Sequence record: NC_049947.1
Strand: one strand, 5' to 3'
From: Escherichia phage 1H12
Length of the DNA: 46,703 nt
Position numbers and translations under genes: made by a program. The notes under the pieces were generated by a model, which saw only the letters and a program-made list of their open reading frames with translations, searched no databases and had not been told where the DNA came from. Positions 13-44,287 of this stretch are shown in pieces. The first letter of the stretch is position 1; every line of letters starts with the position of its first letter.

Positions 13-190
13 TCGCGGGTTTTCGCTATTTATGAAAATTTTCCGGTTTAAGGTGTTTCCGTTCTTCTTCGTCGTAACTTAATGTATTTATTTAAAATAC
101 CCCCTGAAAAGAAAGGAAACGACAGGTGCTGAAAGCGAGCTTTTTGGCCTCTGTCGTTTCCTTTCTCTGTTTTTGTCCGTGGAATGAGCA
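13..190 (+). promoter_or_regulatory. cosB: cosB region (terminase small-subunit binding sites) upstream of nu1
   Basis: Sequence between the cohesive end and nu1 is near-identical to the lambda cosB region as recalled; individual R and IHF sites not mapped. Confidence 0.6.
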
Positions 191-710
191 ATGGAAGTCA
201 ACAAAAAGCAGCTGGCTGACATTTTCGGTGCGAGTATCCGTACCATTCAGAACTGGCAGGAACAGGGAATGCCCGTTCTGCGAGGCGGTGGCAAGGGTAA
301 TGAGGTGCTTTATGACTCTGCCGCCGTCATAAAATGGTATGCCGAAAGGGATTCTGAAATTGAGAACGAAAAGCTGCGCCGGGAGGTTGAAGAACTGCGG
401 CAGGCCAGCGAGGCAGATCTCCAGCCAGGAACTATTGAGTACGAACGCCATCGACTTACGCGTGCGCAGGCCGACGCACAGGAACTGAAGAATGCCAGAG
501 ACTCCGCTGAAGTGGTGGAAACCGCATTCTGTACTTTCGTGTTGTCGCGGATCGCAGGTGAAATTGCCAGTATTCTCGACGGGCTCCCCCTGTCGGTGCA
601 GCGGCGTTTTCCGGAACTGGAAAACCGACATGTTGATTTCCTGAAACGGGATATCATCAAAGCCATGAACAAAGCAGCCGCGCTGGATGAACTGATACCG
701 GGGTTGCTGA

Positions 711-736
<26 letters not shown>
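191..736 (+). CDS. nu1: terminase small subunit Nu1
   Basis: ORF 191..736; protein MEVNKKQLADIFGASIRTIQNWQEQGMPV matches lambda Nu1 with an N-terminal HTH. Confidence 0.95.
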
Positions 737-4417
<3,681 letters not shown>

Positions 4418-4437
<20 letters not shown>

Positions 4438-5737: not shown

Positions 5738-5746
5738 GGGATGTTT

Positions 5747-6079
5747 ATGACGAGCAAAGAAACCTTTACCCATTACCAGCCGCTGGGCAACAGTGACCCG
5801 GCACATACGGCAACCGCGCCCGGCGGATTGAGTGCGAAAGCGCCTGCAATGACCCCGCTGATGCTGGACACCTCCACCCGTAAGCTGGTTGTGTGGGATG
5901 GCACCACCGACGGTGCTGCCGTTGGCATTCTGGCGGTTGCTGCTGACCAGACCAGCACCACGCTGACGTTCTACAAGTCCGGCACGTTCCGTTATGAGGA
6001 TGTGCTCTGGCCGGAGGCTGCCAGCGACGAGACGAAAAAACGGACCGCGTTTGCCGGAACGGCAATCAGCATCGTTTAA
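5747..6079 (+). CDS. D: head decoration protein D
   Basis: ATG at 5747; [22 protein letters not shown] matches lambda gpD. Confidence 0.95.
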
Positions 6080-6134
6080 CCTTACCCTTCATCACTAAAG
6101 GCCGCCTGTGCGGCTTTTTTTACGGGATTTTTTT

Positions 6135-7160
6135 ATGTCGATGTACACAACCGCCCAGCTGCTGGCGGCAAATGAGAAGAAATTTAAGTTTGATCCGCTG
6201 TTTCTGCGTCTCTTTTTCCGTGAGAGCTATCCCTTCACCACGGAGAAAGTCTATCTCTCACAAATTCCGGGACTGGTAAACATGGCGCTGTACGTTTCGC
6301 CGATTGTTTCCGGTGAGGTTATCCGCTCCCGTGGCGGCTCCACCTCTGAATTTACACCGGGATATGTCAAGCCGAAGCATGAGGTGAATCCGCAGATGAC
6401 CCTGCGTCGCCTGCCGGATGAAGATCCACAGAATCTGGCGGACCCGGCTTACCGCCGCCGTCGCATCATTCTGCAGAACATGCGAGACGAAGAGCTGGCC
6501 ATTGCTCAGGTCGAAGAGATGCAGGCCGTTTCTGCCGTGCTTAAGGGCAAATATACCATGACCGGTGAAGCCTTCGATCCGGTTGAAGTGGATATGGGCC
6601 GCAGTGTGGCGAACAACATCACGCAGTCCGGCGGTACGGAGTGGAGCAAGCGTGACAAGTCCACGTATGACCCGACCGACGATATCGAAGCCTACGCGCT
6701 GAACGCCAGCGGTGTGGTGAATATCATCGTGTTTGATCCGAAAGGCTGGGCGCTGTTCCGTTCCTTCAAAGCCGTCAAGGAGAAGCTGGATACCCGTCGC
6801 GGCTCTCATTCCGAGCTGGAGACAGCGGTAAAAGATCTGGGCGAAGCGGTGTCCTATAAGGGGATGTATGGCGATACGGCGATCGTCGTGTATTCCGGAC
6901 AGTACGTGGAAAACGACGTCAAAAAGAACTTCCTGCCGGACAACACGATGGTGCTGGGGAACACTCAGGCACGCGGTCTGCGCACCTATGGCTGCATTCA
7001 GGATGCGGACGCACAGCGCGAAGGTATTAACGCCTCTGCCCGCTACCCGAAAAACTGGGTGACCACCGGCGATCCGGCGCGTGAGTTCACCATGATTCAG
7101 TCAGCACCGCTGATGCTGCTGGCTGACCCTGATGCGTTCGTGTCCGTACAACTGGCGTAA
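6135..7160 (+). CDS. E: major capsid protein E
   Basis: ATG at 6135 in frame with ORF 6108..7160; MSMYTTAQLLAANEKKFKFDPLF matches lambda gpE. Confidence 0.95.
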   Translation: MSMYTTAQLLAANEKKFKFDPLFLRLFFRESYPFTTEKVYLSQIPGLVNMALYVSPIVSGEVIRSRGGSTSEFTPGYVKPKHEVNPQMTLRRLPDEDPQNLADPAYRRRRIILQNMRDEELAIAQVEEMQAVSAVLKGKYTMTGEAFDPVEVDMGRSVANNITQSGGTEWSKRDKSTYDPTDDIEAYALNASGVVNIIVFDPKGWALFRSFKAVKEKLDTRRGSHSELETAVKDLGEAVSYKGMYGDTAIVVYSGQYVENDVKKNFLPDNTMVLGNTQARGLRTYGCIQDADAQREGINASARYPKNWVTTGDPAREFTMIQSAPLMLLADPDAFVSVQLA

Positions 7161-7201
7161 TCATGGCCCTTCGGGGCCATTTTCTCTCTGTGGAGGAGTC
7201 C

Positions 7202-7597
7202 ATGACGAAAGATGAACTGATTGCCCGTCTTCAGGTGCTGGGTGAGCAACTGAACCGTGATGTCAGCCTGACGGGGACGAAAGAAGAACTGGCACTCCGT
7301 GTGGCAGAGCTGGAAGAGGAGCTTGATGACACGGATGACGCTGCTGGTCAGGACACATCTGTCAGCCCGGAAAATGCGCTGACCGGACATGAAAATGAGG
7401 TGGTATCAGCGCAGCCGGATACCGTGACTGATACGGCTGATCTGGTCACGGTTGTGGCACTGGTGACGCTGCATACTGATGCACTTCACGCCACGCGGGA
7501 TGAGGCTGTGGCATTTGTGCTGCCGGGAACGGCGTTCCGTGTCTCTGCCGGTGTGGCAGCTGAAATGACAGAGCGCGGCCTGGCCAGAATGCAATAA
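7202..7597 (+). CDS. FI: DNA packaging protein FI
   Basis: ATG at 7202 (MTKDELIARLQV...) after an RBS; one codon shorter than lambda FI. Confidence 0.9.
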   Translation: MTKDELIARLQVLGEQLNRDVSLTGTKEELALRVAELEEELDDTDDAAGQDTSVSPENALTGHENEVVSAQPDTVTDTADLVTVVALVTLHTDALHATRDEAVAFVLPGTAFRVSAGVAAEMTERGLARMQ

Positions 7598-7608
7598 CGG
7601 GAGGCGCT

Positions 7609-7962
7609 GTGGCTGATTTCGATAACCTGTTCGATGCTGCCATTGCCCGCGCCGATGAAACGATACGCGGGTACATGGGAACGTCAGCCACCATGACATC
7701 CGGTGAGCAGTCCGGTGCTGTGATACGTGGTGTTTTTGATGATCCTGAAAATATCAGCTATGCCGGACAGGGCGTGCGCGTTGAAGGCTCCAGCCCGTTC
7801 CTGTTTGTCCGGACTGATGATGTGCGGCAGCTGCGGCGCGGCGACACGCTGACCATCGGTGAGGAAAACTTCTGGATAGACCGGATTTCGCCGGATGATG
7901 GCGGAAGCTGTCATCTCTGGCTTGGGCGGGGCGTACCGCCTGCCGTTAACCGTCGCCGCTGA
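7609..7962 (+). CDS. FII: head-tail connector protein FII
   Basis: 117-aa ORF with GTG start; lambda gpFII position and sequence. Confidence 0.9.
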   Translation: MADFDNLFDAAIARADETIRGYMGTSATMTSGEQSGAVIRGVFDDPENISYAGQGVRVEGSSPFLFVRTDDVRQLRRGDTLTIGEENFWIDRISPDDGGSCHLWLGRGVPPAVNRRR

Positions 7963-7973
7963 AAGGGGGATGT

Positions 7974-8552
7974 ATGGCCATAAAAGGTCTTGAGCAGGCC
8001 GTTGAAAACCTCAGCCGTATCAGCAGAACGGCGGTGCCCGGTGCCGCCGCAATGGCCATTAACCGCGTTGCTTCATCCGCGATATCGCAGTCGGCGTCAC
8101 AGGTTGCCCGTGAGACAAAGGTACGCCGGAAACTGGTAAAGGAAAGGGCCAGGCTGAAAAGGGCCACGGTCAAAAATCCGCAGGCCAGAATCAGGGTTAA
8201 CCGGGGGGATTTGCCCGTAATAAAGCTGGGTAACGCGCGGATTGTCCTGTCCCGACGCAGGCGTCGTAAAAAGGGGCAGCGTTCAGCCCTGAAAGGTGGC
8301 GGCAGCGTGCTTGTGGTGGGAAACCGTCGTATTCCCGGCGCGTTTATTCAGCAACTGAAAAATGGCCGCTGGCATGTTATGCAGCGTGTGGCCGGGAAAA
8401 ATCGTTACCCCATTGATGTGGTGAAAATTCCGATGGCGGTGCCGCTGACCACGGCGTTTAAACAGAATATTGAGCGGATACGGCGTGAGCGTCTTCCGAA
8501 AGAGCTGGGCTATGCGCTGCAGCATCAACTGAGGATGGTAATAAAGCGATGA
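7974..8552 (+). CDS. Z: tail completion protein Z
   Basis: 192-aa ORF; lambda gpZ order and sequence. Confidence 0.9.
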   Translation: MAIKGLEQAVENLSRISRTAVPGAAAMAINRVASSAISQSASQVARETKVRRKLVKERARLKRATVKNPQARIRVNRGDLPVIKLGNARIVLSRRRRRKKGQRSALKGGGSVLVVGNRRIPGAFIQQLKNGRWHVMQRVAGKNRYPIDVVKIPMAVPLTTAFKQNIERIRRERLPKELGYALQHQLRMVIKR

Positions 8553-8944
8553 AACATACTGAACTCCGTGCAGCCGTACTGGATGCACTGGAGAAGCATG
8601 ACACCGGGGCGACGTTTTTTGATGGTCGCCCCGCTGTTTTTGATGAGGCGGATTTTCCGGCAGTTGCCGTTTATCTCACCGGCGCTGAATACACGGGCGA
8701 AGAGCTGGACAGCGATACCTGGCAGGCGGAGCTGCATATTGAAGTTTTCCTGCCTGCTCAGGTGCCGGATTCAGAGCTGGATTCGTGGATGGAGTCCCGG
8801 ATTTATCCGGTGATGAGCGATATCCCGGCACTGTCAGATTTGATCACCAGTATGGTGGCCAGTGGCTATGACTACCGGCGCGACGATGATGCGGGCCTGT
8901 GGAGTTCAGCCGATCTGACTTATGTCATTACCTATGAAATGTGA
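8549..8944 (+). CDS. U: tail terminator protein U
   Basis: 131-aa ORF overlapping the Z stop; lambda gpU. Confidence 0.9.
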
Positions 8945-8951
8945 GGACGAT

Positions 8952-9692
8952 ATGCCAACACCAAATCCTCTGGCACCGGTGAAAGGGGCCGGGACCACAC
9001 TGTGGGTTTATAAGGGGAACGGTGACCCTTATGCGAACCCGCTTTCAGACGTTGACTGGTCGCGTCTGGCTAAAGTTAAAGACCTGACGCCCGGCGAACT
9101 GACCGCTGAGTCCTATGACGACAGTTATCTCGATGATGAAGATGCGGACTGGACCGCGACCGGACAGGGGCAGAAATCTGCCGGAGATACCAGCTTCACG
9201 CTGGCGTGGATGCCCGGAGAGCAGGGGCAGCAGGCGCTGCTGGCGTGGTTTAATGAAGGGGATACCCGAGCCTATAAAATCCGCTTCCCGAACGGCACGG
9301 TCGATGTGTTCCGCGGCTGGGTCAGCAGTATCGGTAAGGCGGTGACGGCGAAGGAAGTGATCACCCGCACGGTGAAGGTCACCAATGTGGGCCGTCCGTC
9401 GATGGCAGAAGATCGCAGCACGGTGACGGCGACAACCGGCATGACGGTGACACCCGCCAGTGCTTCCGTAGTGAAAGGGCAGAGCACCACGCTGACCGTG
9501 GCATTCCAGCCGGAGGGCGCAACCGACAAGAGCTTCCGTGCGGTGTCTGCGGATAAAACAAAAGCCACCGTGTCGGTCAGTGGTATGACCATCACCGTGA
9601 AAGGTGTTGCTGCAGGCAAGGTCAACATTCCGGTCGTATCCGGTAATGGTGAGTTTGCTGCGGTTGCAGAAATCAACGTCACCGCCAGTTAA
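8952..9692 (+). CDS. V: major tail tube protein V
   Basis: ATG at 8952 ([22 protein letters not shown]...), 246 aa as in lambda gpV. Confidence 0.95.
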
Positions 9693-9707
9693 TCCGGAGA
9701 GTCAGCG

Positions 9708-10130
9708 ATGTTCCTGAAAACCGAATCATTTGAACATAACGGTGTGACCGTCACGCTTTCTGAACTGTCAGCCCTGCAGCGTATTGAGCATCTCGCCCTG
9801 ATGAAACGGCAGGCAGAACAGGCGGAGTCAGACAGCAACCGGAAGTTTACTGTGGAAGACGCCATCAGAACCGGCGCGTTTCTGGTGGCGATGTCCCTGT
9901 GGCATAACCATCCGAAGAAGACAAAGCTGCCTTCCATGAATGAAGCCGTTAAACAGATTGAGCAGGAAGTGCTTACCACCTGGCCCACAGAGGCAATTTC
10001 TCATGCTGAAAACGTGGTGTACCGGCTGTCCGGTATGTATGAGTTTGTGGTGAATGATGCCCCTGAACAGGCAGAGGACGCCGGGTCTGCAGAGCCTGTT
10101 TCTGCGGGAAAGTGTTCGACGGTGAGCTGA
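9708..10130 (+). CDS. G: tail assembly chaperone G
   Basis: 140-aa ORF MFLKTESFEHNGVTVTLSEL matching lambda gpG; slippery GGGAAAG at 10106..10112 near its 3' end. Confidence 0.95.
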   Translation: MFLKTESFEHNGVTVTLSELSALQRIEHLALMKRQAEQAESDSNRKFTVEDAIRTGAFLVAMSLWHNHPKKTKLPSMNEAVKQIEQEVLTTWPTEAISHAENVVYRLSGMYEFVVNDAPEQAEDAGSAEPVSAGKCSTVS

Positions 10131-10546
10131 GTTTTGCCCTGAAACTGGCGCGTGAGATGGGGCGACCTGACTGGCGCGCCATGCTTGCCGGGATGTCATC
10201 CACAGAGTATGCCGACTGGCACCGCTTTTACAGTACCCATTATTTTCATGATGTTCTGCTGGATATGCACTTTTCCGGGCTGACGTACACCGTGCTCAGC
10301 CTGTTTTTCAGCGATCCGGATATGCATCCGCTGGATTTCAGTCTGCTGAACCGGCGTGAGGCTGACGAAGAGCCTGAAGATGATGTGCTGATGCAGAAAG
10401 CGGCAGGGCTTGCCGGAGGCGTCCGCTTTGCCCCGGACGGAAATGAAGTTATCCCCGCTTCCCCGGATATGGCGGGCATGACGGAGGATGACGTAATGCT
10501 GATGACAGTATCAGAAGGGATCGCAGGAGGAGTCCGGTATGGCTGA
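10112..10546 (+). CDS. T: T portion of the G-T tail assembly fusion (made by -1 programmed frameshift from G; full product 9708..10546)
   Basis: ORF in the -1 frame beginning at the GGGAAAG slippery heptamer, as in lambda G/GT. Confidence 0.85.
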   Translation: MFDGELSFALKLAREMGRPDWRAMLAGMSSTEYADWHRFYSTHYFHDVLLDMHFSGLTYTVLSLFFSDPDMHPLDFSLLNRREADEEPEDDVLMQKAAGLAGGVRFAPDGNEVIPASPDMAGMTEDDVMLMTVSEGIAGGVRYG

Positions 10547-10772
10547 ACCGGTAGGCGATCTGGTCGTTGATTTAAGTCTGGATGCGGCCAGATTTGACGA
10601 GCAGATGGCCAGAGTCAGGCGTCATTTTTCCGGTACGGAAAGTGATGCGAAAAAAACAGCGGCAGTCGTTGAACAGTCGCTGAGCCGACAGGCGCTGGCT
10701 GCACAGAAAGCGGGGATTTCCGTCGGGCAGTATAAAGCCTGCCATGCGTATGCTGCCTGCGCAGTTCACTGA
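10539..10772 (+). pseudogene. H: tape measure protein H, N-terminal fragment (first ~66 codons match lambda gpH, then frame is lost)
   Basis: MAEPVGDLVVDLSLDAARFDEQ...GQYKA matches the lambda gpH N-terminus; an extra nucleotide near 10737-10741 (gcctgcc versus lambda gccgcc) shifts the frame to a stop at 10770..10772. Confidence 0.7.
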
Positions 10773-13119
10773 CGTGGCCACGCAGCTTGCAGGCGGGCAA
10801 AGTCCGTGGCTGATCCTGCTGCAACAGGGTGGTCAGGTGAAGGACTCCTTCGGCGGGATGATCCCCATGTTCAGGGGGCTTGCCGGTGCGATCACCCTGC
10901 CGATGGTCGGGGCCACCTCGCTGGCGGTGGCGACCGGTGCGCTGGCGTATGCCTGGTATCAGGGCAACTCAACCCTGTCCGATTTCAATAAAACGCTGGT
11001 CCTTTCCGGTAATCAGGCGGGACTGACGGCAGATCGTATGCTGGCCCTGTCCAGATCCGGGCAGGCGGCAGGGCTGACGTTTAACCAGACCAGCGAGTCA
11101 CTGACGGCGCTGGTGAATGCCGGTGTGCGTGGTGGTGAGCAGTTTGAGGCAATCAGCCAGAGTGTGGCGCGTTTCTCCTCTGCATCCGGCGTGGAGGTGG
11201 ACAAGGTCGCTGAAGCCTTCGGGAAGCTGACCACTGACCCGACGTCTGGGTTGACGGCGATGGCGCGCCAGTTCCATAACGTGACGGCGGAACAGATTGC
11301 GTATGTTGCTCAGTTGCAGCGTTCCGGCGATGGGGCCGGGGCATTGCAGGCGGCGAACGAGGCCGCAACGAAAGGGTTTGATGACCAGACCCGTAAACTG
11401 AAAGATAACATGGGTACGCTGGAGACCTGGGCAGACAAGACTGCACAGGCATTCAAATCCATGTGGGATGCGGTGCTGGATATTGGTCGCCCGGACTCCT
11501 CTGCAGATATGCTCGCCAAAGCTGAAAAGGCTTTTGATGAAGCGGATAAAAAATGGCAGTGGTATCAGAGCCGAAGCCACCGGCGCGGTAAAACGTCAGC
11601 ATTTCTTGCCAATCTCCGGGGGGCATGGGAGAAGAGAGAGAATGCGCGACTTGGGCTTTCAGCCGCCACGTTGCAGGCAGATCTTGAAAAGGCCAGTGAG
11701 ATGGCAGCAAAAGATCGGGCCGAGTCTGAGGCATCACGGCTGAAATATACCGAAGAGGCGCAGAAGGCTTACGAACGCCTGCAGACACCGCTGGAGAAAT
11801 ATACCGCCCGCCAGGAGGAACTGAATAAGGCACTGAAAGACGGAAAAATCCTGCAGGCAGATTACAACACGCTGATGGCGGCGGCGAAAAAGGACTATGA
11901 AGCGACGCTGAAAAAGCCGAAGCAGTCCGGCGTGAAAGTGTCTGCGGGCGATCGTCAGGAAGACAGTGCTCATGCTGCCCTGCTGACGCTTCAGGCAGAA
12001 CTCCGGACACTGGAGAAGCATGCCGGAGCGAATGAGAAAATCAGCCAGCAGCGCCGGGATTTGTGGAAGGCGGAAAGTCAGTTCGCGGTACTGGAGGAGG
12101 CGGCGCAACGTCGCCAGCTGTCCGCACAGGAGAAATCCCTGCTGGCGCATAAAGATGAGACGCTGGAGTACAAACGCCAGCTGGCTGCACTTGGCGATAA
12201 GGTCACGTATCAGGAGCACCTGAACGCGCTGGCGCAGCAGGCGGATAAATTCGCACAGCAGCAACGGGCAAAACGGGCAGCCATTGAGGCGAAAAACCGG
12301 GGGCTGACTGACCGGCAGGCAGCGCGGGACGCCACGGAACAGCGCCTGAAGGAACAGTATGGCGATAATCCGCTGGCGCTGAATAGCGTCATGTCAGAGC
12401 AGAAAAAGACCTGGGCGGCTGAAGACCAGCTTCGCGGGAGCTGGATGGCAGGCCTCAGGTCAGGCTGGAGTGAGTGGGAAGAGAGCGCCACGGACAGTAT
12501 GTCGCAGGTTAAAAGTGCAGCCACGCAGACCTTTGATGGTATTGCACAGAATATGGCGGCGATGCTGACCGGCAGTGAACAGAACTGGCGCAGCTTCACC
12601 CGTTCCGTGCTGTCCATGATGACAGAAATTCTGCTTAAGCAGGCAATGGTGGGGATTGTCGGGAGTATCGGCAGCGCCATTGGAGGTGCTACCGGTGGCG
12701 GCTCATCAGCGTCAGGTGGTGCAGCCATTCAGGCCGCTGCGGCGAAACTCCATTTTGCGACCGGAGGATTTACGGGAACCGGCGGCAAATATGAGCCAGC
12801 AGGGATTGTTCACCGTGGTGAATTTGTCTTCACGAAGGAGGCAACCAGCCGGATTGGCGTGGGGAATCTTTACCGGCTGATGCGCGGCTATGCCACCGGC
12901 GGTTATGTCGGTACACCGGGCAGCATGGCGGACAGTCGGTCGCAGGCGTCCGGGAAGTTTGAGCAGAATAACCATGTGGTGATTAACAACGACGGCACGA
13001 ACGGTCAGATAGGGCCACAGGCGCTGAAGGCGGTTTATGACGTAGCCCGTAAGGCGGCAATGGATGTTGTGACCGGGCAGATGCGTGATGGTGGTCTGTT
13101 CTCCGGAGGTGGACGATGA
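10744..13119 (+). CDS. H: tail tape measure protein H (main body, 791 aa)
   Basis: MRMLPAQFTDVATQLAGGQSPWLILLQQGG continues lambda gpH from residue ~68; C-terminus ends GGLFSGGGR as in lambda. Confidence 0.9.
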   Translation: MRMLPAQFTDVATQLAGGQSPWLILLQQGGQVKDSFGGMIPMFRGLAGAITLPMVGATSLAVATGALAYAWYQGNSTLSDFNKTLVLSGNQAGLTADRMLALSRSGQAAGLTFNQTSESLTALVNAGVRGGEQFEAISQSVARFSSASGVEVDKVAEAFGKLTTDPTSGLTAMARQFHNVTAEQIAYVAQLQRSGDGAGALQAANEAATKGFDDQTRKLKDNMGTLETWADKTAQAFKSMWDAVLDIGRPDSSADMLAKAEKAFDEADKKWQWYQSRSHRRGKTSAFLANLRGAWEKRENARLGLSAATLQADLEKASEMAAKDRAESEASRLKYTEEAQKAYERLQTPLEKYTARQEELNKALKDGKILQADYNTLMAAAKKDYEATLKKPKQSGVKVSAGDRQEDSAHAALLTLQAELRTLEKHAGANEKISQQRRDLWKAESQFAVLEEAAQRRQLSAQEKSLLAHKDETLEYKRQLAALGDKVTYQEHLNALAQQADKFAQQQRAKRAAIEAKNRGLTDRQAARDATEQRLKEQYGDNPLALNSVMSEQKKTWAAEDQLRGSWMAGLRSGWSEWEESATDSMSQVKSAATQTFDGIAQNMAAMLTGSEQNWRSFTRSVLSMMTEILLKQAMVGIVGSIGSAIGGATGGGSSASGGAAIQAAAAKLHFATGGFTGTGGKYEPAGIVHRGEFVFTKEATSRIGVGNLYRLMRGYATGGYVGTPGSMADSRSQASGKFEQNNHVVINNDGTNGQIGPQALKAVYDVARKAAMDVVTGQMRDGGLFSGGGR

Positions 13120-13445
13120 AAACCTTCCGCTGGAAAGTGAAACCGGGTATGGATGTGGCTTCGACTCCTTCCGTCAGGGAGGTGCGCTTTGGTGATGGCT
13201 ATTCCCAGCGAGCGCCTGCCGGGCTGAATGCCAACCTGAAAACGTACAGCGTGACGATTTCTGTCCCCCGTTGGGAGGCCACGGCGCTGGAATCGTTTCT
13301 GGCAGAGCACGGAGGCTGGAAAGCCTTTCTGTGGACGCCGCCTTATGACTGGCGGCAGATAAAGGTGACCTGCGCAAAATGGACGTCGCGGGTCAGTATG
13401 CTGCGTGTTGAGTTCAGCGCAGAGTTTAAACAGGTGGTGAACTGA
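13116..13445 (+). CDS. M: minor tail protein M
   Basis: 109-aa ORF overlapping the H stop; lambda gpM. Confidence 0.9.
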   Translation: MKTFRWKVKPGMDVASTPSVREVRFGDGYSQRAPAGLNANLKTYSVTISVPRWEATALESFLAEHGGWKAFLWTPPYDWRQIKVTCAKWTSRVSMLRVEFSAEFKQVVN

Positions 13446-14143
13446 TGCAGGATATCCGGCAGGAAACACTGAATGAATGCACCCGTGCGGAGCAGTCGGC
13501 CAGCGTGGTGCTCTGGGAAATCGATCTGACAGAGGTCGGTGGTGAACGTTATTTTTTCTGTAATGAGCAGAACGAAAAAGGTGAGCCTGTCACCTGGCAG
13601 GGGCGGCAGTATCTGGCGTATCCCATTCAGGGGAGTGGTTTTGAACTGAATGGCAAAGGCACCAGTACGCGCCCCACGCTGGCAGTCTCTAACCTGTACG
13701 GCATGGTCACCGGGATGGCGGAAGACCTGCAGAGTCTGGTCGGCGGAACGGTGGTCAGGCGTAAGGTTTACGCCCGTTTTCTGGATGCGGTGAACTTCGT
13801 CAACGGAAACAGCGATGCCGATCCGGAGCAGGAGGTGATCAGCCGCTGGCGCATCGAGCAGTGCAGCGAACTGAGCGCGGTAAGTGCCTCCTTTGTACTG
13901 TCCACGCCGACGGAAACGGATGGTGCTGTTTTTCCGGGGCGCATCATGCTGGCCAACACCTGTACCTGGACCTATCGCGGTGATGAGTGCGGTTATAGCG
14001 GTCCGGCGGTCGCGGATGAATATGACCAGCCGACGTCCGATATCACGAAGGATAAATGCAGCAAATGCCTGAGTGGCTGTAAGTTTCGCAATAATGTCGG
14101 CAACTTTGGCGGCTTCCTTTCCATTAACAAACTTTCGCAGTAA
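13445..14143 (+). CDS. L: minor tail protein L
   Basis: 232-aa ORF; lambda gpL with the C-terminal Cys cluster. Confidence 0.9.
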   Translation: MQDIRQETLNECTRAEQSASVVLWEIDLTEVGGERYFFCNEQNEKGEPVTWQGRQYLAYPIQGSGFELNGKGTSTRPTLAVSNLYGMVTGMAEDLQSLVGGTVVRRKVYARFLDAVNFVNGNSDADPEQEVISRWRIEQCSELSAVSASFVLSTPTETDGAVFPGRIMLANTCTWTYRGDECGYSGPAVADEYDQPTSDITKDKCSKCLSGCKFRNNVGNFGGFLSINKLSQ

Positions 14144-14148
14144 ATCCC

Positions 14149-14892
14149 ATGACAGAGACAGAATCAGCGATTCTGGCGCACGCCCGGCGATGTGCGCCAG
14201 CGGAGTCGTGCGGCTTCGTGGTGAGAACGCCGGAGGGGGAAAGATATTTTCCCTGCGTGAATATCTCCGGTGAGCCGGAGGATTATTTCCGGATGTCGCC
14301 GGAGGACTGGCTGCAGGCAGAGATGCAGGGTGAGATTGTGGCGCTGGTCCACAGTCATCCCGGTGGTCTGCCCTGGCTGAGTGAGGCCGACCGGCGGCTG
14401 CAGGTGCAGAGTGATTTGCCGTGGTGGCTGGTCTGCCGGGGGGCGATTCACAAGTTCCGCTGTGTGCCGCATCTCACCGGGCGGCGCTTTGAGCACGGGG
14501 TGACGGACTGTTACACGCTGTTCCGGGACGCTTACCATCTGGCGGGGATTGAGATGCCGGATTTTACGCGGGAGGATGACTGGTGGCGTCACGGTCAGAA
14601 TCTCTATCTGGATAATCTGGAGGCAACGGGGCTGTATCAGGTGCCGTTGTCAGCGGCGCAGCCGGGCGATGTGCTGCTGTGCTGCTTTGGTTCATCGGTG
14701 CCGAATCATGCCGCTATTTACTGTGGTGACGGCGAGCTGCTGCACCATATTCCTGAACAACTGAGCAAACGAGAGAGGTATACCGACAAATGGCAGCGAC
14801 GCACACACTCCCTCTGGCGTCACCGGGCATGGCACGCATCTGCCTTTACGGGGATTTGCAACGATTTGGCCGCCGCATCGATCTTCGTGTGA
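14149..14892 (+). CDS. K: tail tip assembly protein K
   Basis: 247-aa ORF with HSHPGG motif and a C-terminal Cys-His region; the classic lambda K annotation starts at the internal Met (14293). Confidence 0.85.
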   Translation: MTETESAILAHARRCAPAESCGFVVRTPEGERYFPCVNISGEPEDYFRMSPEDWLQAEMQGEIVALVHSHPGGLPWLSEADRRLQVQSDLPWWLVCRGAIHKFRCVPHLTGRRFEHGVTDCYTLFRDAYHLAGIEMPDFTREDDWWRHGQNLYLDNLEATGLYQVPLSAAQPGDVLLCCFGSSVPNHAAIYCGDGELLHHIPEQLSKRERYTDKWQRRTHSLWRHRAWHASAFTGICNDLAAASIFV

Positions 14893-15461
14893 AAACGGGG
14901 GCTGAAGCTATCCGGGCGCTGGCCACACAGCTCCCGGCGTTTCGTCAGAAACTGAGCGACGGCTGGTATCAGGTACGGATTGCCGGGCGGGACGTCAGCA
15001 CGTCCGGGTTAACGGCGCAGTTACATGAGACTCTGCCTGATGGCGCTGTGATTCATATTGTTCCCAGAGTCGCCGGGGCCAAGTCAGGTGGCGTATTCCA
15101 GGTTGTCCTGGGGGCTGCCGCCATTGCCGGATCATTCTTTACCGCCGGAGCCACCCTTGCAGCATGGGGGGCAGCCATTGGGGCCGGTGGTATGACCGGC
15201 ATCCTGTTTTCTCTCGGTGCCAGTATGGTGCTCGGTGGTGTGGCGCAGATGCTGGCACCGAAAGCCAGAACTCCCCGTACACAGACAACGGATAACGGCA
15301 AACAGAACACCTATTTCTCCTCACTGGATAACATGGTTGCCCAGGGCAATGTTCTGCCGGTTCTGTACGGTGAAATGCGCGTGGGGTCACGCGTGGTTTC
15401 TCAGGAGATCAGCACGGCAGACGAAGGGGATGGTGGTCAGGTTGTGGTGATTGGTCGCTGA
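14790..15461 (+). CDS. I: tail tip assembly protein I
   Basis: 223-aa ORF overlapping K; lambda gpI. Confidence 0.9.
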   Translation: MAATHTLPLASPGMARICLYGDLQRFGRRIDLRVKTGAEAIRALATQLPAFRQKLSDGWYQVRIAGRDVSTSGLTAQLHETLPDGAVIHIVPRVAGAKSGGVFQVVLGAAAIAGSFFTAGATLAAWGAAIGAGGMTGILFSLGASMVLGGVAQMLAPKARTPRTQTTDNGKQNTYFSSLDNMVAQGNVLPVLYGEMRVGSRVVSQEISTADEGDGGQVVVIGR

Positions 15462-15521
15462 TGCAAAATGTTTTATGTGAAACCGCCTCCGGGCGGTTTT
15501 GTCGTTTATGGAGCATGACGA

Positions 15522-18500
15522 ATGGGTAAAGGCAGCAGTAAGGGGCATACCCCGCGCGAAGCGAAGGACAACCTGAAGTCCACGCAGCTGCTGAGTGTGA
15601 TCGATGCCATCAGCGAAGGGCCGGTTGAAGGTCCGGTGGATGGATTAAAAAGCGTGCTGCTGAACAGTACGCCGGTGCTGGACAGTGAGGGGAATACCAA
15701 TATCTTCGGTGTCACGGTGGTGTTCCGGGCAGGTGAGCAGGAGCAGACTCCGCCGGAGGGGTTTGAATCCTCCGGCTCCGAGACGGTGCTGGGTACGGAA
15801 GTGAAATATGACATGCCGATCACCCGCACCATCACGTCGGCAAACATCGACCGTCTGCGCTTTACTTTCGGCGTGCAGGCACTGGTGGAAACTACCTCAA
15901 AGGGGGACAGGAATCCGTCGGAAGTCCGTCTGCTGGTTCAGATACAGCGTAATGGTGGCTGGGTGACGGAAAAAGACATCACCATTAAAGGCAAAACCAC
16001 CTCGCAGTATCTGGCCTCGGTGGTGGTGGATAACCTGCCGCCGCGCCCGTTTAATATCCGGATGCGCAGGATGACGCCGGACAGCACCACAGACCAGCTG
16101 CAGAACAAAACGCTCTGGTCGTCATACACCGAAATCATCGATGTGAAACAGTGCTACCCGAACACGGCACTGGTCGGCGTGCAGGTGGACTCGGAACAGT
16201 TCGGCAGTCAGCAGGTGAGCCGTAATTATCATCTTCGCGGGCGCATTCTGCAGGTGCCGTCGAACTATAACCCGCAGACGCGGCAATACAGCGGTATCTG
16301 GGACGGAACGTTAAAACCGGCATACAGCAACAACATGGCCTGGTGTCTGTGGGATATGCTGACCCATCCGCGCTACGGCATGGGAAAACGTCTTGGTGCG
16401 GCGGATGTGGATAAATGGGCGCTGTATGTCATCGGCCAGTACTGCGACCAGTCGGTGCCGGACGGCTTTGGCGGCACGGAGCCGCGCATTACCTGTAATG
16501 CGTACCTGACCACACAGCGCAAGGCGTGGGATGTGCTCAGTGATTTCTGCTCGGCGATGCGCTGTATGCCGGTATGGAACGGGCAGACGCTGACGTTCGT
16601 GCAGGACCGACCATCAGATAAGGTGTGGACCTATAACCGCAGTAATGTGGTGATGCCGGATGATGGCGCGCCGTTCCGCTACAGCTTCAGCGCCCTGAAG
16701 GACCGCCATAATGCCGTTGAGGTGAACTGGATTGACCCGGATAACGGCTGGGAGACGGCGACAGAGCTCGTGGAGGATACGCAGGCCATTGCCCGTTACG
16801 GTCGTAATGTCACGAAGATGGATGCCTTTGGCTGTACCAGTCGGGGGCAGGCACACCGCGCCGGGCTGTGGCTGATTAAAACGGAACTGCTGGAAACGCA
16901 GACCGTGGATTTCAGCGTCGGCGCAGAAGGGCTTCGCCATGTACCGGGCGATGTTATTGAAATCTGTGATGATGACTATGCCGGTATCAGCACCGGTGGT
17001 CGTGTGCTGGCGGTGAACAGCCAGACCCGGACGCTGACGCTCGACCGTGAAATCACGCTGCCATCCTCCGGTACCACGCTGATAAGCCTGGTTGACGGAA
17101 GTGGCAATCCGGTCAGCGTGGAGGTTCAGTCCGTCACCGACGGCGTGAAGGTAAAAGTGAGCCGTGTTCCTGACGGTGTTGCTGAATACAGCGTATGGGG
17201 GCTGAAGCTGCCGACGCTGCGCCAGCGCCTGTTCCGCTGTGTGAGTATCCGGGAGAACGATGACGGTACGTATGCCATCACCGCCGTGCAGCATGTACCG
17301 GAAAAAGAAGCCATCGTGGATAACGGGGCGCACTTTGACGGCGACCAGAGCGGCACGGTGAATGGTGTCACGCCGCCAGCGGTGCAGCACCTGACCGCCG
17401 AAGTCACCACAGACAGCGGGGAATATCAGGTGCTGGCGCGATGGGACACGCCGAAGGTGGTGAAGGGCGTGAGCTTCCTGCTTCGCCTTACCGTGGCAGC
17501 GGACGACGGCAGTGAGCGGCTGGTCAGCATGGCCCGGACGACGGAAACCACATACCGCTTCAGGCAACTGGCGCTGGGGAACTACAGGCTGACAGTCCGG
17601 GCGGTAAATGCGTGGGGGCAGCAGGGCGATCCGGCATCGGTATCGTTCCGGATTGCCGCACCGGCAGCGCCGTCGCAGATTGAGCTGACACCGGGGTATT
17701 TTCAGATAACCGCCACGCCCCATCTTGCCGTTTATGATCCGACGGTACAGTTTGAGTTCTGGTTCTCGGAAAAGCGGATTGCGGATATCAGGCAGGTTGA
17801 AACCACAGCCCGCTATCTTGGCACGGCGCTGTACTGGATAGCTGCCAGTATCAATATCAAACCGGGCCATGATTATTATTTTTACATCCGCAGTGTGAAC
17901 ACCGTTGGCAAATCGGCATTTGTGGAGGCTGTTGGCCAGCCGAGTGATGATGCATCCGGCTATCTGGATTTTTTCAAAGGCGAGATAGGGAAAAGCCATC
18001 TGGCTCAGGAGCTGTGGACGCAGATTGATAACGGTCAGCTTGCGCCTGACCTGGCTGAAATCAGGACGTCCATTACGGATGTCAGCAATGAAATCACGCA
18101 GACCGTCAATAAGAAACTGGAAGACCAGAGTGCGGCAATTCAGCAGATACAGAAGGTTCAGGTTGATACAAATAATAACCTGAACAGCATGTGGGCTGTG
18201 AAGCTGCAGCAGATGCAGGACGGACGCCTTTATATCGCGGGTATTGGTGCCGGTATTGAGAACACCCCTGACGGCATGCAGAGTCAGGTGCTGCTGGCGG
18301 CGGACAGGATTGCGATGATTAATCCTGCGAATGGCAATACAAAGCCGATGTTTGTTGGGCAGGGCGATCAGATATTCATGAACGAAGTGTTCCTGAAATA
18401 TCTGACGGCTCCCACCATTACCAGCGGTGGCAATCCCCCAACGTTTTCACTGACACCTGATGGTCGACTTTCTGCGAGAAATGCGGATATCAGCGGTAAC

Positions 18501-23468: not shown

Positions 23469-24292
23469 CTTTCTTCCCTCTGCACCGCTGACGGTCGATG
23501 AGCCACAAAAGGGCGTTCATCGTCAGTAATAATGCTTTCTTCCGAGCCGTTAAGTGTGACATGGCGCAGTACGCCGCTAAAAGCCAGCTCTAGGTTCTCG
23601 GCTGTAAAAGTGGTGTCTGTCGGCCCGCTTGCCAGGACGGTGCCTTTGACCATGACCGTATAATCGCAAAATGTCGTGACGGATCCGAGATTGTGTGTTG
23701 AGACAAGCATCGTTTTGCCTTCCGCGCGTAACTCCCTCAACAGGCTGATGATTTTGGCTTCGGTTTTCACATCAACGCCAGTAAAAGGTTCATCCAGCAG
23801 GATCACATCACCCTGCTGTGCAATCGCTCTCGCCAGAAAGACGCGTTTCTTTTGTCCACCGGAAAGCTCGCCGATTTGTCGATGGCGAAAATTCACCATA
23901 TCGACACGTTCCAGCGCATCGGTGACAATTTGACGATCCCTCTTTTTGGCGATACGCAACATACCCATATGCCCATAGCGGCCCATCATCACCACATCTT
24001 CCACCAGTACAGGAAATGACCAGTCAACATCTTCTGACTGAGGGACGTAGGCAACCAGGTTTTTCTGTAACGCCTGTCGCGTGGGAATACCCAGAACAGA
24101 TATCTTTCCGCTGGTCAGACGCACAAATCCCATAATCGCTTTAAACAACGTCGATTTTCCGGAACCGTTTACCCCAACCAGAGCGGCAATAGATCCACTT
24201 GGTACTGTGAAGGATGCATCGCGCAGTGCTGTGTGCCCGTTACGCCAGGTGACAGTAACATCATTAACGACAATGCCTGCAGATTGCATCAT
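23465..24292 (-). CDS. sitB: manganese/iron ABC transporter ATP-binding protein SitB
   Basis: 275-aa ORF with Walker [10 protein letters not shown] and an ABC signature motif. Confidence 0.9.
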
Positions 24293-25206
24293 TATTTCTC
24301 CCTTTTCCCAGCTTTAATTCCCTGTACCAGCGTACTGGTAGTAACCTTAAGAAGGTCGATATACGTCGGTACCGGGCCGTTTTCTGTGCTCAGGGAATCG
24401 ACATAGAGCACACCGCCGTAGTGTGCGCCGGTTTCACGCGCAACCTGACGCGCTGGTTTATCGGAAATCGTACTCTCGCTAAAGACTGCCGGGATATGAT
24501 TTTTCTTAACTATATCAACAACCTTACGTACCTGCTGCGGTGTTCCTTGTTGATCGGCATTAATCGGCCACAGATAAAGCTCTTTTAGCCCCAAATCGCG
24601 TGCGAGATAAGAAAAAGCCCCTTCACTGGTGACCATCCATCGCTGATTCTCAGGGAGTTCCGTAATCTGCTTACGCAGGGGGGCAAGGGTTTGGGTAATC
24701 TTGGCTTTATAAGTATCGGCATTGCGTTGGTAGGTTTGTGCATTTGCCGGATCGTATTTTATCAACGCATCACGAATATTATCGACGTAAATCAGAGCAT
24801 TATCTGGCGACATCCATGCATGGGGGTTAGGTTTGCCCTCATAGGGTCCTTCGGTGATCCCTACAGGCGTCACACCCGAAGAGACAATTACTTCTGGAAC
24901 CCCATTGAGATGCTGGTAAAAGCGTTGGAACCACAATTCCAGATTCATACCATTGGCGAGAATCAGTTGTGCCCCCTGCGCACGTTTAATATCGCCAGGG
25001 GTAGGCTGATACTCATGAATTTCTGCACCAGGCTTGGTTATGGATGAGACTTCTGCAGCATCTCCCGCCACGTTTTTGGCCATATCCGCGATGATGGTAA
25101 ATGTTGTAATGACCTTGAATTTTTCAGTTGCACTTGCCTGAAATGCGATCGAGCAGGTGAGTGCGAGCCCCCCCAAGAGCATGGTTACTTTTTTTATCGA
25201 GTGCAT
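24292..25206 (-). CDS. sitA: manganese/iron ABC transporter periplasmic substrate-binding protein SitA
   Basis: 304-aa ORF with an N-terminal signal peptide; TroA/PsaA-like metal-binding protein. Confidence 0.85.
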
Positions 25207-25299: not shown

Positions 25300-25607
25300 G
25301 CAGCTTTGAGGCCCAAAACAGGGATTAGGTTGTTTCCTGCTGGCGACGCGTTATTGAGGAAAAAAGTAAGGCAGCTAGTAGGCTTTGAAATAACGTTTTG
25401 CGGTTGGCTGATGCAATTTCGAGAGTGCATGTATTGAATGATTTCTAGCCGTTACTGATTTTCGTATTTTTTGTATGGGAGGATTTGCACCTCCCCCCAC
25501 CGAGCCTCCATGACTTTACTCCACTGTCTCTAGGGCTGCTGTGTGCCAGGAGCGGAAGCAGGGGGGGCCAGAGACTCCTTAAAAGTTGATAGCTCGTTTT
25601 GCAGGGA

Positions 25608-25690
25608 GACTTACACGGTAAGCGTTATTCCGAAGAGCTTAAAATTGAAGCAGTCAAACGGGTTGTTGAGCGTGTTTATGCGCTGCCATC
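25608..25690 (+). mobile_element. possible remnant of an IS3-family transposase orfA (N-terminal fragment only)
   Basis: Frame translating to GKRYSEELKIEAVKRVVERV resembles the conserved N-terminus of IS3-family OrfA; no intact ORF or inverted repeats found. Confidence 0.3.
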
Positions 25691-25893
25691 TGATTAATCG
25701 ACGGAAGCAGTTCCGTTTGGTCTATGATGCAGTTGTCCGGCAGGCGCTCTGTGACGCAAAAGAACGATAGGAGTAGCATTGAAGTGAACGAGGTTATGCT
25801 TGTCTTATATTATCCTCTATTTTAAAAACATCAGCTGGTTGTGTAAGAGTTTTTATTGTTTTATCTTGTTGACTTTGCTTTTATGAAAACAGA

Positions 25894-26664
25894 GTGATTG
25901 ATACAATGAAAACCTTAAGTGGGAAAGAGTTTAGGAAATTATTTAATCGTTATGAGACAGGATTCTATCTAAGTGAGTTTGAATACTTAAAGGACTTTGA
26001 TCCTTTGTTTCCTGAATGCGTAGGGAAAGAATTAAAGTTGGGTTATAAACGAAAAGTTGATGTATGGTGCGAAGAGGATGCTGCGCTATATGCAGAATTT
26101 ATAGCTACAAAAGAAAGGCTGAAAAGAGGCCGGTTAATCCTAAAAATAAACCAAGTGTGGTCGCGTGTATATCCTGCTTATATTTATGCAATTGAAGAAA
26201 GAATAAATGTCAGGGCAAAGGGGAGAGAGTCATTTAAGTATGAAACTGTGCAAGAAAAACAATGTAAACTTTCCATAATGTTAGATGGTCTGAAAGACCT
26301 TGAATGTGAAATAGCTATGATTTCAAGTGAGTTTGAAATTGAAAAACACTCTATGCACTATTTTTATATGATTTTTGATATTGAACGCTATATAAATGAC
26401 TGCAGTTACTTTGTTTTTTCTGCTGCTAAAGTTGTTAAAGGCGTGATTCAATGCATTGGTTACATTGACAAAAATAACAAAGCAAGTTGCGATGAATTTT
26501 ATTCAGGCAGCTATGAATGCTTGGATGATGATCAGGAAACACTGAACTATTTAAATGAATCATGCGCAGAGGGTATAGACGCTGATAAAGATCTCATCAG
26601 GAAGAATGAGTTATTAGCCTTATCCCTGAAGGAATTGTATCAACTTCTCGTTTCAAAAAAATAA
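25894..26664 (+). CDS. hypothetical protein (AT-rich orphan cargo gene, soluble, Cys-rich)
   Basis: 256-aa ORF in a low-GC island between the sit operon and attP; GTG at 25894 or ATG at 25906; no family recognised. Confidence 0.6.
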   Translation: MIDTMKTLSGKEFRKLFNRYETGFYLSEFEYLKDFDPLFPECVGKELKLGYKRKVDVWCEEDAALYAEFIATKERLKRGRLILKINQVWSRVYPAYIYAIEERINVRAKGRESFKYETVQEKQCKLSIMLDGLKDLECEIAMISSEFEIEKHSMHYFYMIFDIERYINDCSYFVFSAAKVVKGVIQCIGYIDKNNKASCDEFYSGSYECLDDDQETLNYLNESCAEGIDADKDLIRKNELLALSLKELYQLLVSKK

Positions 26665-26990
26665 CAAGTAATACGGCGAGCGATATGACGTGCCATGGGA
26701 TATCCGCACCCAGCAGCATGTTGTCTCCACGATGTCCGCAGTTCGCTCATAATAGACATTCACTACAGTTATAGTAGAAGGTATGCATGCTGCTGAGTGG
26801 GGAAAGTGTGAAAGAAAAGAAGACAGCTGCTTTGTTTGTCGTCACGTTTATCTTCATTGGCTATGCAAGTCGTAATACAAGGCGGGACAAAACTGAGACA
26901 CATAAGGCCTCGCAATGGCTTGCAAGGCCACACATGTATTGAGATGTTAATAAAATGTAGACTTGTAATTTTGATATAAATGGTAGAGAA

Positions 26991-27310: not shown

Positions 27311-27335
27311 AAACGGGCGTGTTATACGCCCGTTG
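27311..27335 (+). terminator. icd-type rho-independent terminator carried within attP
   Basis: Hairpin gggcgtgtta-tacgcccg followed by ttgtttt, directly after the icd stop. Confidence 0.6.
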
Positions 27336-27401: not shown

Positions 27402-28544
27402 CTATGCTGTTTTGATATCTACGATAACCCAGTCTTTACCACGATCATCATTGTATCGGTCGGTCATTTTTCTGGATTTATGGCCTAACAACTTTTGCGT
27501 ATCCAGACCCTGTTCCCGATATAACCGTTCTGACAGAGATCGCTGCTCATGAAATGTGGGCGCAGTTCCTTGCTCCCATTTTATGCCACATTTTTCCCTG
27601 GCCTTTTTAAAAGCCGTTGTCAGAGTATTTGCAGAAACCTGGTCTCCTCTGTTTGCTTGAGAGGTAGTGTGACGGTAATGGACCAGATATTTACTAACAA
27701 CAGCATCCCTGCACTGAGATATAACTTCACGAAGGGTAATATTCAGAGCATCGCATTTCAGGTTAAGCGGAATAGCAAGTTTTGAACCGGTTTTTTCCTG
27801 AGTAATGTGCAACATGTCGTCCCAGATATCAGAGAATTTCAAATTGCAGATATCACCTAAACGTTGTCCAGTAACAAGAGCAAGTAGCATGCCGCATTTT
27901 AAATAGGGCTGCCGTCTGCTTACGCTTTCAAATATTGCCTGCCATTCGGGCAGTGACAATCTTTGGCGGTTTACTCGATTTCGCGGTTGTTTTGTTGCCT
28001 GCGCTGGGTTAAATCCTGGCGGAACATGTCCTGCGTGTTGTGCTTCTTTGAAGACGTCGATCAACACCATTCTCACGACTTGCGCCATCCTGTTATGACC
28101 TTCAGCCTTTACAGCATCAATTATTTCGGCAATATCAAGTGCGGTAATATCCTTGAGGTGTTGCATTCCACAATGCTCACGGAAAAGACGAATGGGTTTG
28201 CCTTTTTGCCGATAGGAGTTGGGTCTTAGTTCATTATGTTGCAGCCTGTCCTCCTGGATAGAAATATATTTATCAAGCCATTCTGTCACCGTAATTTCTG
28301 AGCGCCTGCCTTTCATTCTTTCCAGACGCTCATTGACGCTTAATATTTGTCGGGTACGTTGTTCAGCAATAATGGTATTTGCTTCAGTAGCAACTTGTTT
28401 TGCTTCATTCTCATCAGTTCCTAAGCTATGAAAACGACCGGATAGTGGATGTTTGTATTGCCAATATACCTTTCCGGTTCGCTTATCTAATTTGCAATAT
28501 AAATTGGGTATAGAGATTTTGTGAGATCGGGGTCTAGCAGCCAT
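27402..28544 (-). CDS. int: tyrosine site-specific integrase (icd-targeting)
   Basis: 380-aa ORF with a C-terminal tyrosine recombinase catalytic region (HxxR...Y), adjacent to attP. Confidence 0.9.
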   Translation of the reverse strand: MAARPRSHKISIPNLYCKLDKRTGKVYWQYKHPLSGRFHSLGTDENEAKQVATEANTIIAEQRTRQILSVNERLERMKGRRSEITVTEWLDKYISIQEDRLQHNELRPNSYRQKGKPIRLFREHCGMQHLKDITALDIAEIIDAVKAEGHNRMAQVVRMVLIDVFKEAQHAGHVPPGFNPAQATKQPRNRVNRQRLSLPEWQAIFESVSRRQPYLKCGMLLALVTGQRLGDICNLKFSDIWDDMLHITQEKTGSKLAIPLNLKCDALNITLREVISQCRDAVVSKYLVHYRHTTSQANRGDQVSANTLTTAFKKAREKCGIKWEQGTAPTFHEQRSLSERLYREQGLDTQKLLGHKSRKMTDRYNDDRGKDWVIVDIKTA

Positions 28545-28770
28545 CAGCGATTATCCGTTGGAGTTTTGGGTTTGCGTTTATTGGGAGTTGCGGTTCTGCA
28601 AGCGTTCCTACAAAACGGGAATTTCGGTCAATCATCCAGTAGCGACCAACTTTTATAGCGGGTGGGGCCATCATTTTCCCTTGCGCGTATTTTTTCAGAA
28701 CTCGCTCACTTGGTGCTAAGTCCCCAAATTCTTCTTTAGCCCAGTCCTGTAAAGTGATTAGTCGAGACAT
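28534..28770 (-). CDS. xis: excisionase
   Basis: 78-aa ORF overlapping the int start; small basic DNA-binding protein at the canonical position. Confidence 0.75.
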   Translation of the reverse strand: MSRLITLQDWAKEEFGDLAPSERVLKKYAQGKMMAPPAIKVGRYWMIDRNSRFVGTLAEPQLPINANPKLQRIIADGC

Positions 28771-43546: not shown

Positions 43547-44287
43547 GTGGATGGTATGCCATGCATATGTTCTATCATTTTGGTTTTGAACTCGTTTGAT
43601 ATCCGGCTTGGTAAAGAAAAAATCTCTCTAAAAAAAGGAAGTGTTGTTGCTATAGAATACAATTTAAAAGTTTTCTTTTCTTCAAATAAAGATAATATAA
43701 TGATCGTGGATATTGAAGAGAAAACAGTTAATGACTTCTTTAAAAACAATACACTCTCACCTTTTTCTGTAAGAAGATTTTATTCAGCATACTTGATAGT
43801 AAACTGTACAGACTATTCATTGTTAAAGAACTTGATAGGTTGCTTGAATTGTGATGGTGAAACTACGGCTGTAGTTAAAAATTCAATATTATTTGCATGT
43901 CTTGCTATTTTATCCTCGGAAAAAATGTTTCAGAGTTTTTTGTTTGGGTGTCTTAATAGTTTAGGAAGCAAAGTTAAGGCTATTATTCACTCGGACATAT
44001 CTGCAGCATGGAGACTTTGTGATATTTCTTCAAGACTATGTCTGAGTGAAAGTTTGTTAAAAAGAAAACTAAAACACGAAGGCTTATCATTTAGCAAATT
44101 AATTCTTGAAGAACGAATGGTGATGGCTGAAAGGTTATTAAGCTACAATTTCTATCCTGTTGGGAAAGTTGCTAAAATATGTGGTTATGAAAGCGCGTCA
44201 TATTTTATAAGTGTTTTCAGAAGATATTTTGGTGTTCCCCCCCATGAATATTCATCAAGATTTTTTTTAGAAAAAGGCAAGATGTAA
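43547..44287 (+). CDS. AraC-family transcriptional regulator (AppY-like)
   Basis: 246-aa ORF in a very AT-rich island with a C-terminal AraC-type HTH (KVAKICGYESASYFISVFRRYFGVPPHEY). Confidence 0.75.
   Translation: MDGMPCICSIILVLNSFDIRLGKEKISLKKGSVVAIEYNLKVFFSSNKDNIMIVDIEEKTVNDFFKNNTLSPFSVRRFYSAYLIVNCTDYSLLKNLIGCLNCDGETTAVVKNSILFACLAILSSEKMFQSFLFGCLNSLGSKVKAIIHSDISAAWRLCDISSRLCLSESLLKRKLKHEGLSFSKLILEERMVMAERLLSYNFYPVGKVAKICGYESASYFISVFRRYFGVPPHEYSSRFFLEKGKM

Follow-up and report, generated by a model that had tools for sequence, protein, structure and literature searches.

What is the AT-rich gene that sits beside the attachment site of Escherichia phage 1H12 (NC_049947.1), and what might it do for the element that carries it? 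Within the window analysed here, the whole stretch of 46,703 nucleotides, the gene lies between the sitABCD transporter operon, followed by a fragment resembling an insertion sequence (IS), and attP. An original prediction, made from the letters alone, had placed an orphan cargo gene at this position, and the neighbours proved to be as described. We find that the gene forms part of a self-contained accessory moron of about 960 bp (25791-26750), which stands outside the lytic and integration machinery. We think, tentatively, that its product, referred to below as the orphan protein, most likely acts on its own and non-enzymatically, as a regulator or sensor that binds DNA.

An intact gene of a very narrow family

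The six-frame listing of open reading frames (ORFs) in the window gives, as predicted, a plus-strand ORF of 256 amino acids (aa) at 25894..26664, counted from a GTG. An ATG at 25906, four codons inside this frame, is the start of 20 of 20 full-length homologues (MKT...; MKTLSGKEF). Because every one of them shares the MKT start, we moved the start to this position, and the real coding sequence (CDS) is most likely 25906..26664, encoding 252 aa. A GC profile of the window gave 0.34 at 26001-26500 and 0.341 over the CDS, compared with 0.53-0.63 in the head/tail module (1-18000), which bears out the low-GC island set against a GC-rich structural module in the original prediction. All alleles keep a GC content of 34-38%, whatever their host. 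The description of the product as soluble, with many cysteines and an acidic C-terminal half, also held: it contains nine cysteines (3.6%), residues 1-110 are basic (isoelectric point, pI, 8.6-9.5) and residues 111-252 acidic (pI 4.3-5.0). The highest 19-residue Kyte-Doolittle hydropathy is 1.46, indicating a soluble protein without a membrane segment. A pore-forming or membrane role was rejected, since no hydrophobic segment is present.

We compared nine alleles from different hosts. Every one is intact, the median pairwise ratio of non-synonymous to synonymous substitution rates (dN/dS) is 0.24, and dS reaches 0.9. The ORF is a real gene under purifying selection, and more than a chance reading frame.

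The orphan protein matches, at 100% identity, CPT_21_31 (UMO75446.1), a product annotated as hypothetical in the classical lambdoid phage 21 (OL657228.1), where the gene occupies the same place, between sitA and the icd'/attP/int module. The same protein is on record as RefSeq WP_000567449.1 and as UniProt Q2LD86 / A0A066SWV1. The annotators of phage 21 obtained no function from InterProScan, BLAST or HHpred and left the product as 'hypothetical' (PMC9119081), and we found no paper that mentions WP_000567449 or Q2LD86. Eighteen complete phage genomes carry the identical protein, namely phage 21 and 17 more (e.g. Lambda_2E9, ev207, ev017, Perceval and PhiR47_2). As an object, then, the protein is already known, having been deposited thousands of times as 'hypothetical protein'; newly established are its identity with CPT_21_31, the very narrow family, the mobile cassette of about 0.96 kb, the natural minus-variants and the two-domain model.

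Within E. coli the gene is common. DNA of at least 99% identity is present in 760-772 of 5,426 complete genomes (~14%), at least 758 of which hold 100% conserved copies. Among the carriers are Nissle 1917 (WP_000567449.1), the type strain, NC101 and O25b:H4-ST131 strains; the region of Nissle 1917 that we examined has the gene as the last of a prophage integrated in icd. It is a gene of a founding model phage, phage 21, and of the sit prophage of about one in seven complete E. coli genomes, among them the probiotic Nissle 1917 and pandemic clones of ExPEC (extraintestinal pathogenic E. coli).

Beyond E. coli the family shrinks to very little. A word-indexed search of 5.8 billion proteins returned about 20 clusters at 63-88% identity, from Citrobacter, Klebsiella variicola, Mangrovibacter and an Aeromonadaceae metagenome-assembled genome (MAG). 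When HMMER was run exhaustively against 1.84 billion representatives, it brought up a single further full-length cluster and a protein of 26% identity, P0035; neither profile searches nor a search seeded with P0035 added further family members. Three of 185,579 species-representative genomes carry the gene, and matches in viral and metagenome contig scans were almost all the E. coli allele. On the strength of the HMMER pass and the genome count, the orphan status proposed earlier is very nearly correct. The distant relative P0035 (260 aa) has the same N-terminal motifs and is encoded on a Logan contig (SRR32281524; L006 10001-10783), about 2 kb downstream of an IncFII repA in a same-strand string of genes, with three small ORFs (one of them DUF2913) before it and an HNH-like ORF after it; it has no relatives of its own among the 5.8 billion proteins.

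At the sequence level the claim that no family could be recognised was likewise upheld. Neither the whole protein nor any of 12 N-terminal fragments matched a Pfam family at E values up to 10, and NCBIfam and PDB sequences gave no match, domain profile included. The one match to a protein family was PHROG 20520, of unknown function, which aligns over its full length (E 1.4e-177; residues 5-256 on positions 1-252 of the 252-position profile). Pfam, NCBIfam, PADLOC and hydropathy revealed no sign of a nuclease, NTPase, toxin or transmembrane segment, nor was there any similarity to the phage's own Xis. Neither a match to a characterised family nor decay of the window copy was found. The family is among the narrowest, approximately a single cluster in 1.84 billion representatives, and yet it is under purifying selection and has a confident predicted fold.

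A mobile, stand-alone cassette

About 115 nt upstream and 85 nt downstream of the gene travel with it across unrelated genomes, and the mobile unit is the whole cassette, flanks included. Its settings differ widely. The Citrobacter telavivensis homologue lies in an island with an integrase, a DUF1963 protein and a T5orf172 protein, the last of which matches the PD-Lambda-1 and PDC-S57 models; that of K. variicola adjoins a 200-aa recombinase, and that of C. sedlakii is flanked by the conjugation modules of an integrative conjugative element (ICE). In the Aeromonadaceae MAG the gene adjoins a type I restriction-modification system and an Imm50 gene, while Mangrovibacter and another enterobacterial contig carry it in small islets. 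Across seven different neighbourhoods no neighbour gene was shared. Because the immediate neighbours are unrelated between contexts, a two-gene system was rejected. Most homologues are without an adjacent integrase.

The slot itself is variable. The sister phages 3W, 1W, D2, 4A7 and Lambda_4C10, which are sit-positive and integrate in icd, are without the gene; their agreement with the window ends at 25343 and begins anew at 26844, with about 500 bp of different AT-rich sequence filling the gap. Since the gene is missing from such closely comparable phages, the slot can be described as variable cargo, in keeping with the accessory role originally predicted, and elsewhere the homologues stand alone in an ICE, in islands and on a plasmid. 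The gene-less slot of phage 3W (L016 6503-7000) contains a truncated ORF ending '...ELRILIEIRNKLAHGQW...', in which an R-x4-H motif looks HEPN-like by eye and has no Pfam match.

Both ends of the cassette were inspected. On the left it is preceded by a mosaic of IS3 orfA type (25520-25790), pieces of which match more than 2,000 plasmid records and which we therefore regard as insertion-sequence debris. One frame of this mosaic reads '...GKRYSEELKIEAVKRVVER...' and, nearer the gene, '...IEVNEVMLVLYY...'. In Citrobacter, Mangrovibacter and the Aeromonadaceae MAG, too, debris of the same kind lies 5' of the cassette, and this recurrence suggests that an IS may have helped to move the cassette. 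On the right, homology to lambda, left of attP, restarts at 26735. A motif of about 20 nt, TCCGC-N4-TCGCTCA, at 26727-26745 is common to the window, lambda and the gene-less phage 3W, and is also present in the non-phage Citrobacter and Klebsiella cassettes, with weak similarity for about 25 nt further; it may be a recombination joint.

The flanking blocks are conserved to different degrees. Mean pairwise identity is 82% in a 45-nt upstream core (25831-25875), 61% at 25876-25905 and 33-39% further out. In a family whose gene dS rises to 0.9, an 82% core next to 30 nt at 61% fits a constrained regulatory site, and the core contains a weak sigma-70-like sequence, TTGTGT-17 nt-TATCTT, at 25839-25867. 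The phage 21 record annotates a CII binding site, TTGYN6TTGY, at 25856-25869, about 37 nt upstream of the start. This pattern occurs nine times in the window compared with 12 ± 3.8 in shuffled sequence and its first half-site is unconserved in the homologues; we therefore rejected a CII-dependent promoter and consider the site probably a chance occurrence. For the downstream block two candidates were rejected. An IS end or transposase remnant is not supported, since the block matches only cassette copies and lambda-like backbone and no repeated element. A terminator or structured RNA is not supported either, RNAalifold giving -4 kcal/mol with nine weak pairs, and there was no Rfam match and no T-run.

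Predicted fold and possible roles

An AlphaFold2 model built on a 20-sequence alignment is confident (mean predicted local distance difference test score, pLDDT, 92.5; predicted template-modelling score, pTM, 0.84) and has two domains (Table 1). At the level of fold, the N-terminal 55 residues are modelled as a winged helix of AlpA/MerR type. They carry a conserved basic wing tip (G46-Y-K-R-K50), an F35-P36...V53-W54 motif and conserved basic residues K7 and R10 in helix 1, and most of the structural neighbours of this domain are true DNA binders. The bundle opens with a basic helix, whereas its far end is acidic and contains cysteines. The best-conserved feature of this acidic C-terminal bundle is a loop and helix start, C195-DEFYSGSYE-C205-LDDD, and Cys166, Cys183 and Cys195 are invariant in the close family. 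Against the PDB, the whole model matched only generic helical bundles (the CorA cytosolic domain, spectrin repeats and PhoU), and against predicted viral structures it had no match.

Two metal-binding arrangements were considered for the bundle and rejected. A Cys4 cluster fails because the cysteines are missing in P0035. For the CZB zinc four-helix bundle, the motif of which we take to be Hxx[WFYL]x21-28Cx[LFMVI]Gx[WFLVI]x18-27HxxxH, H151-x-x-Y154 and C183 fit the first part by eye, but the glycine is displaced and the HxxxH that should come next is missing.

For the regulator or sensor that we favour, we infer DNA binding, autoregulation, expression in the lysogen and a sensor role for the bundle. 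The winged helix, and especially the KRK wing together with the basic first helices, would dock on DNA. Among its targets there would probably be the conserved block upstream of its gene, leading to autoregulation, along with sites belonging to the host or to other mobile elements. The four-helix bundle could serve in oligomerisation and perhaps as a redox- or metal-sensitive switch, by analogy with MerR in logic and not in membership. The gene's own promoter would drive it in the lysogen, and transcription or DNA transactions would be altered to the benefit of the element or the host. If so, the protein may link prophage carriage to the physiology of ExPEC hosts. Several observations weigh against this proposal. 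The putative groove-reading helix carries conserved acidic residues (E24, E26, D30 and D32), which is unusual for a DNA-reading helix, and CbpM and RppC, protein-binding users of the same fold, are also among the structural matches. A consensus scan called no convincing sigma-70 promoter or plus-strand terminator at the gene; the upstream block is without a clear dyad or repeat operator, and its motif has no further copies in the phage. Finally, P0035, the distant homologue, does not retain the cysteines, and the sensor idea loses weight accordingly.

A different role, less likely in our view but a serious contender, is that of a single-protein phage-exclusion or abortive-infection factor with which a prophage, ICE or plasmid blocks phages that compete with it. 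In this scheme the winged helix would serve to detect the DNA of the invader or an intermediate in replication or packaging, on which the bundle would then oligomerise so that infection stalls, a logic comparable to that of the prophage protein BstA and lambda RexA. Consistent with such a factor, the gene is AT-rich, occurs sporadically and by itself, and occupies variable cargo sites in a prophage, an ICE, islands and a plasmid; the copy next to restriction-modification and Imm50 genes, the copy near the T5orf172 protein, and the different AT-rich cargo remnant in the slot of the sister phages also fit. PADLOC-DB 2.0 contributed a sole weak match, to PDC-M13C (E 0.0034, 15.6 bits, residues 5-29), and no significant one; no effector domain (nuclease, NADase, pore or kinase) was found, most neighbours are not defence genes, contexts other than the two just named hold none that is recognisable, and the accession is not in those supplementary files of the DefensePredictor paper that could be searched. 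Stated more broadly, the cassette might be a new single-gene weapon between mobile elements, which recognises the DNA of a competitor or one of its DNA-handling proteins (excisionase, integrase or small terminase) and blocks its development, a proposal to which we give no more than limited credence. An exclusion factor of this sort would add a non-enzymatic mechanism, and phage 21 and the ExPEC sit prophage (ST131, Nissle 1917 and others) would then harbour an exclusion system not described before, with ICEs and plasmids as its further vehicles. We think it unlikely that the excisionase-like fold is instead used to bind protein, in the manner of CbpM with CbpA or RppC with phage TerS. Such a modulator or mimic would bind an integrase, terminase small subunit, chaperone or regulator of a competitor or of the host, with the acidic bundle as a decoy or inhibitor and a possible counter-defence function. 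However, most structural neighbours of the head are true DNA binders, the KRK wing tip and K7/R10 are conserved and basic, and there is no co-occurring partner gene.

An element-maintenance or nucleoid-associated protein, which like pSK1 Par, RacA and DdrC would organise or segregate DNA by binding to repeats in the vicinity of its own gene, appears improbable. Least credible of all is that the ORF is a passenger without function, decaying or silenced and carried along with sitABCD and the prophage. It is true that IS1 splits the gene at about codon 72 in E. coli ZJ3920 (L018 722-1533) and that at least six other complete E. coli genomes, making at least seven, are likewise disrupted; truncated alleles of 127-179 aa are on record, and some E. 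coli lineages have lost the gene. AT-rich DNA is commonly silenced in E. coli, and the near-100% identity within the species reflects clonal spread rather than selection. Nevertheless, the gene is intact, with the dN/dS and dS values given above, in at least six genera and in unrelated contexts; its product has a confident two-domain predicted fold with strongly conserved surface motifs, and the cassette was acquired independently by different types of element. As an object of study the locus is inexpensive and clearly delimited, with a single 0.96-kb cassette, phages that naturally carry or lack it, and a model host.

Neighbouring features and known systems

The features of the cassette and its surroundings are collected in Table 1. 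To the left, sitDCBA runs on the minus strand and reaches up to 25206. To the right, the minus-strand hairpin at 26929-26906, within 26877-26930, is placed so as to stop transcripts in the int direction short of the cargo gene, and may be this phage's counterpart of tI/sib.

Table 1. Positions in the window of the cassette, its parts and its neighbours
Feature	Coordinates	Strand	Remarks
sitA, first gene of the divergent sitABCD iron/manganese transporter operon	24292..25206	-	left neighbour, outside the cassette
IS3-family orfA-type debris	25520..25790	+	between sit promoter region and cassette; 2,225 plasmid records match pieces; IS3 similarity noted by phage 21 annotators
Upstream block travelling with the gene	25791..25905	+	conservation measured; candidate promoter/operator, a putative reading
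Orphan protein CDS (252 aa + stop)	25906..26664	+	conserved ATG; intact in nine alleles; equals phage 21 CPT_21_31
N-terminal domain (aa 1-55)	25906..26070	+	predicted beta-alpha-alpha-beta-beta winged helix-turn-helix, AlpA/excisionase/MerR type
C-terminal domain (aa 56-251)	26071..26661	+	four long antiparallel helices predicted (56-110, 115-147, 153-189, 206-251)
Downstream block	26665..26750	+	conserved with the gene in most contexts; ends at TCCGC-N4-TCGCTCA
Backbone restart	26735..26930	-	~81% identical to lambda just left of attP; minus-strand terminator-like hairpin 26929-26906 facing int transcription
Duplicate of the last ~50 host icd codons	27136..27288	+	right edge of cargo region; then terminator 27312-27334 and attP
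int	27402-28544	-	
xis	28534-28770	-	the phage's own, beside int

Elsewhere in the window, a 246-aa plus-strand ORF at 43547-44287 ends in an AraC-type C-terminal helix-turn-helix, '...GYESASYFISVFRRYFGVPPHEY'. It lies in the window's lowest-GC stretch (0.30-0.36), between the late-regulation region and the genes for holin (44455) and lysozyme (44670), and has the appearance of another AT-rich moron, here with a regulator as its product.

How does the orphan protein compare with systems already described? The nearest in fold are the AlpA/excisionase proteins (HTH_17; e.g. the GIsul2 excisionase, PDB 8c3t), whose FP...W motif is present in the orphan protein and whose winged-helix fold is predicted for it. 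These are single-domain proteins of about 60-80 aa that act as recombination directionality factors or small regulators beside an integrase. The orphan protein, in contrast, has 252 aa and two domains, its wing hairpin is six residues longer, its second helix is acidic and it has an extra helical bundle of 195 aa; moreover, the phage already possesses a separate xis. MerR regulators combine a DNA-binding head with a long helix and then a sensor module. No MerR or MerR_1 sequence signature was found in the orphan protein with Pfam or NCBIfam, and no promoter with a 19-20 bp spacer and dyad is present in 25770-25910. In addition, the 55-residue helix that follows the wing folds back, in the monomer model, into an intramolecular four-helix bundle, rather than forming a dimeric antiparallel coiled coil. 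Since neither AlpA/HTH_17 nor MerR is matched at the sequence level, and the protein size and genomic habits of these families are not shared, we do not place the orphan protein in either group; it is the fold of the head alone that they have in common. A winged helix joined to a helical bundle or coiled coil is also the architecture of Deinococcus DdrC (winged helix-turn-helix plus four-helix bundle) and of staphylococcal pSK1 Par.

As a genetic element, the cassette is best compared with the lambdoid morons and the cargo of the lambda b-region, such as lom, bor and the sitABCD genes of phage 21. With these it shares a non-essential character, a foreign base composition, a position between conserved modules, presence/absence polymorphism and an independent orientation. 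Most of the known morons in this class specify envelope or transport functions, whereas the product here is a cytoplasmic protein with a predicted winged helix, and the cassette is also found outside phages. It is an ordinary kind of object that carries an unusual protein.

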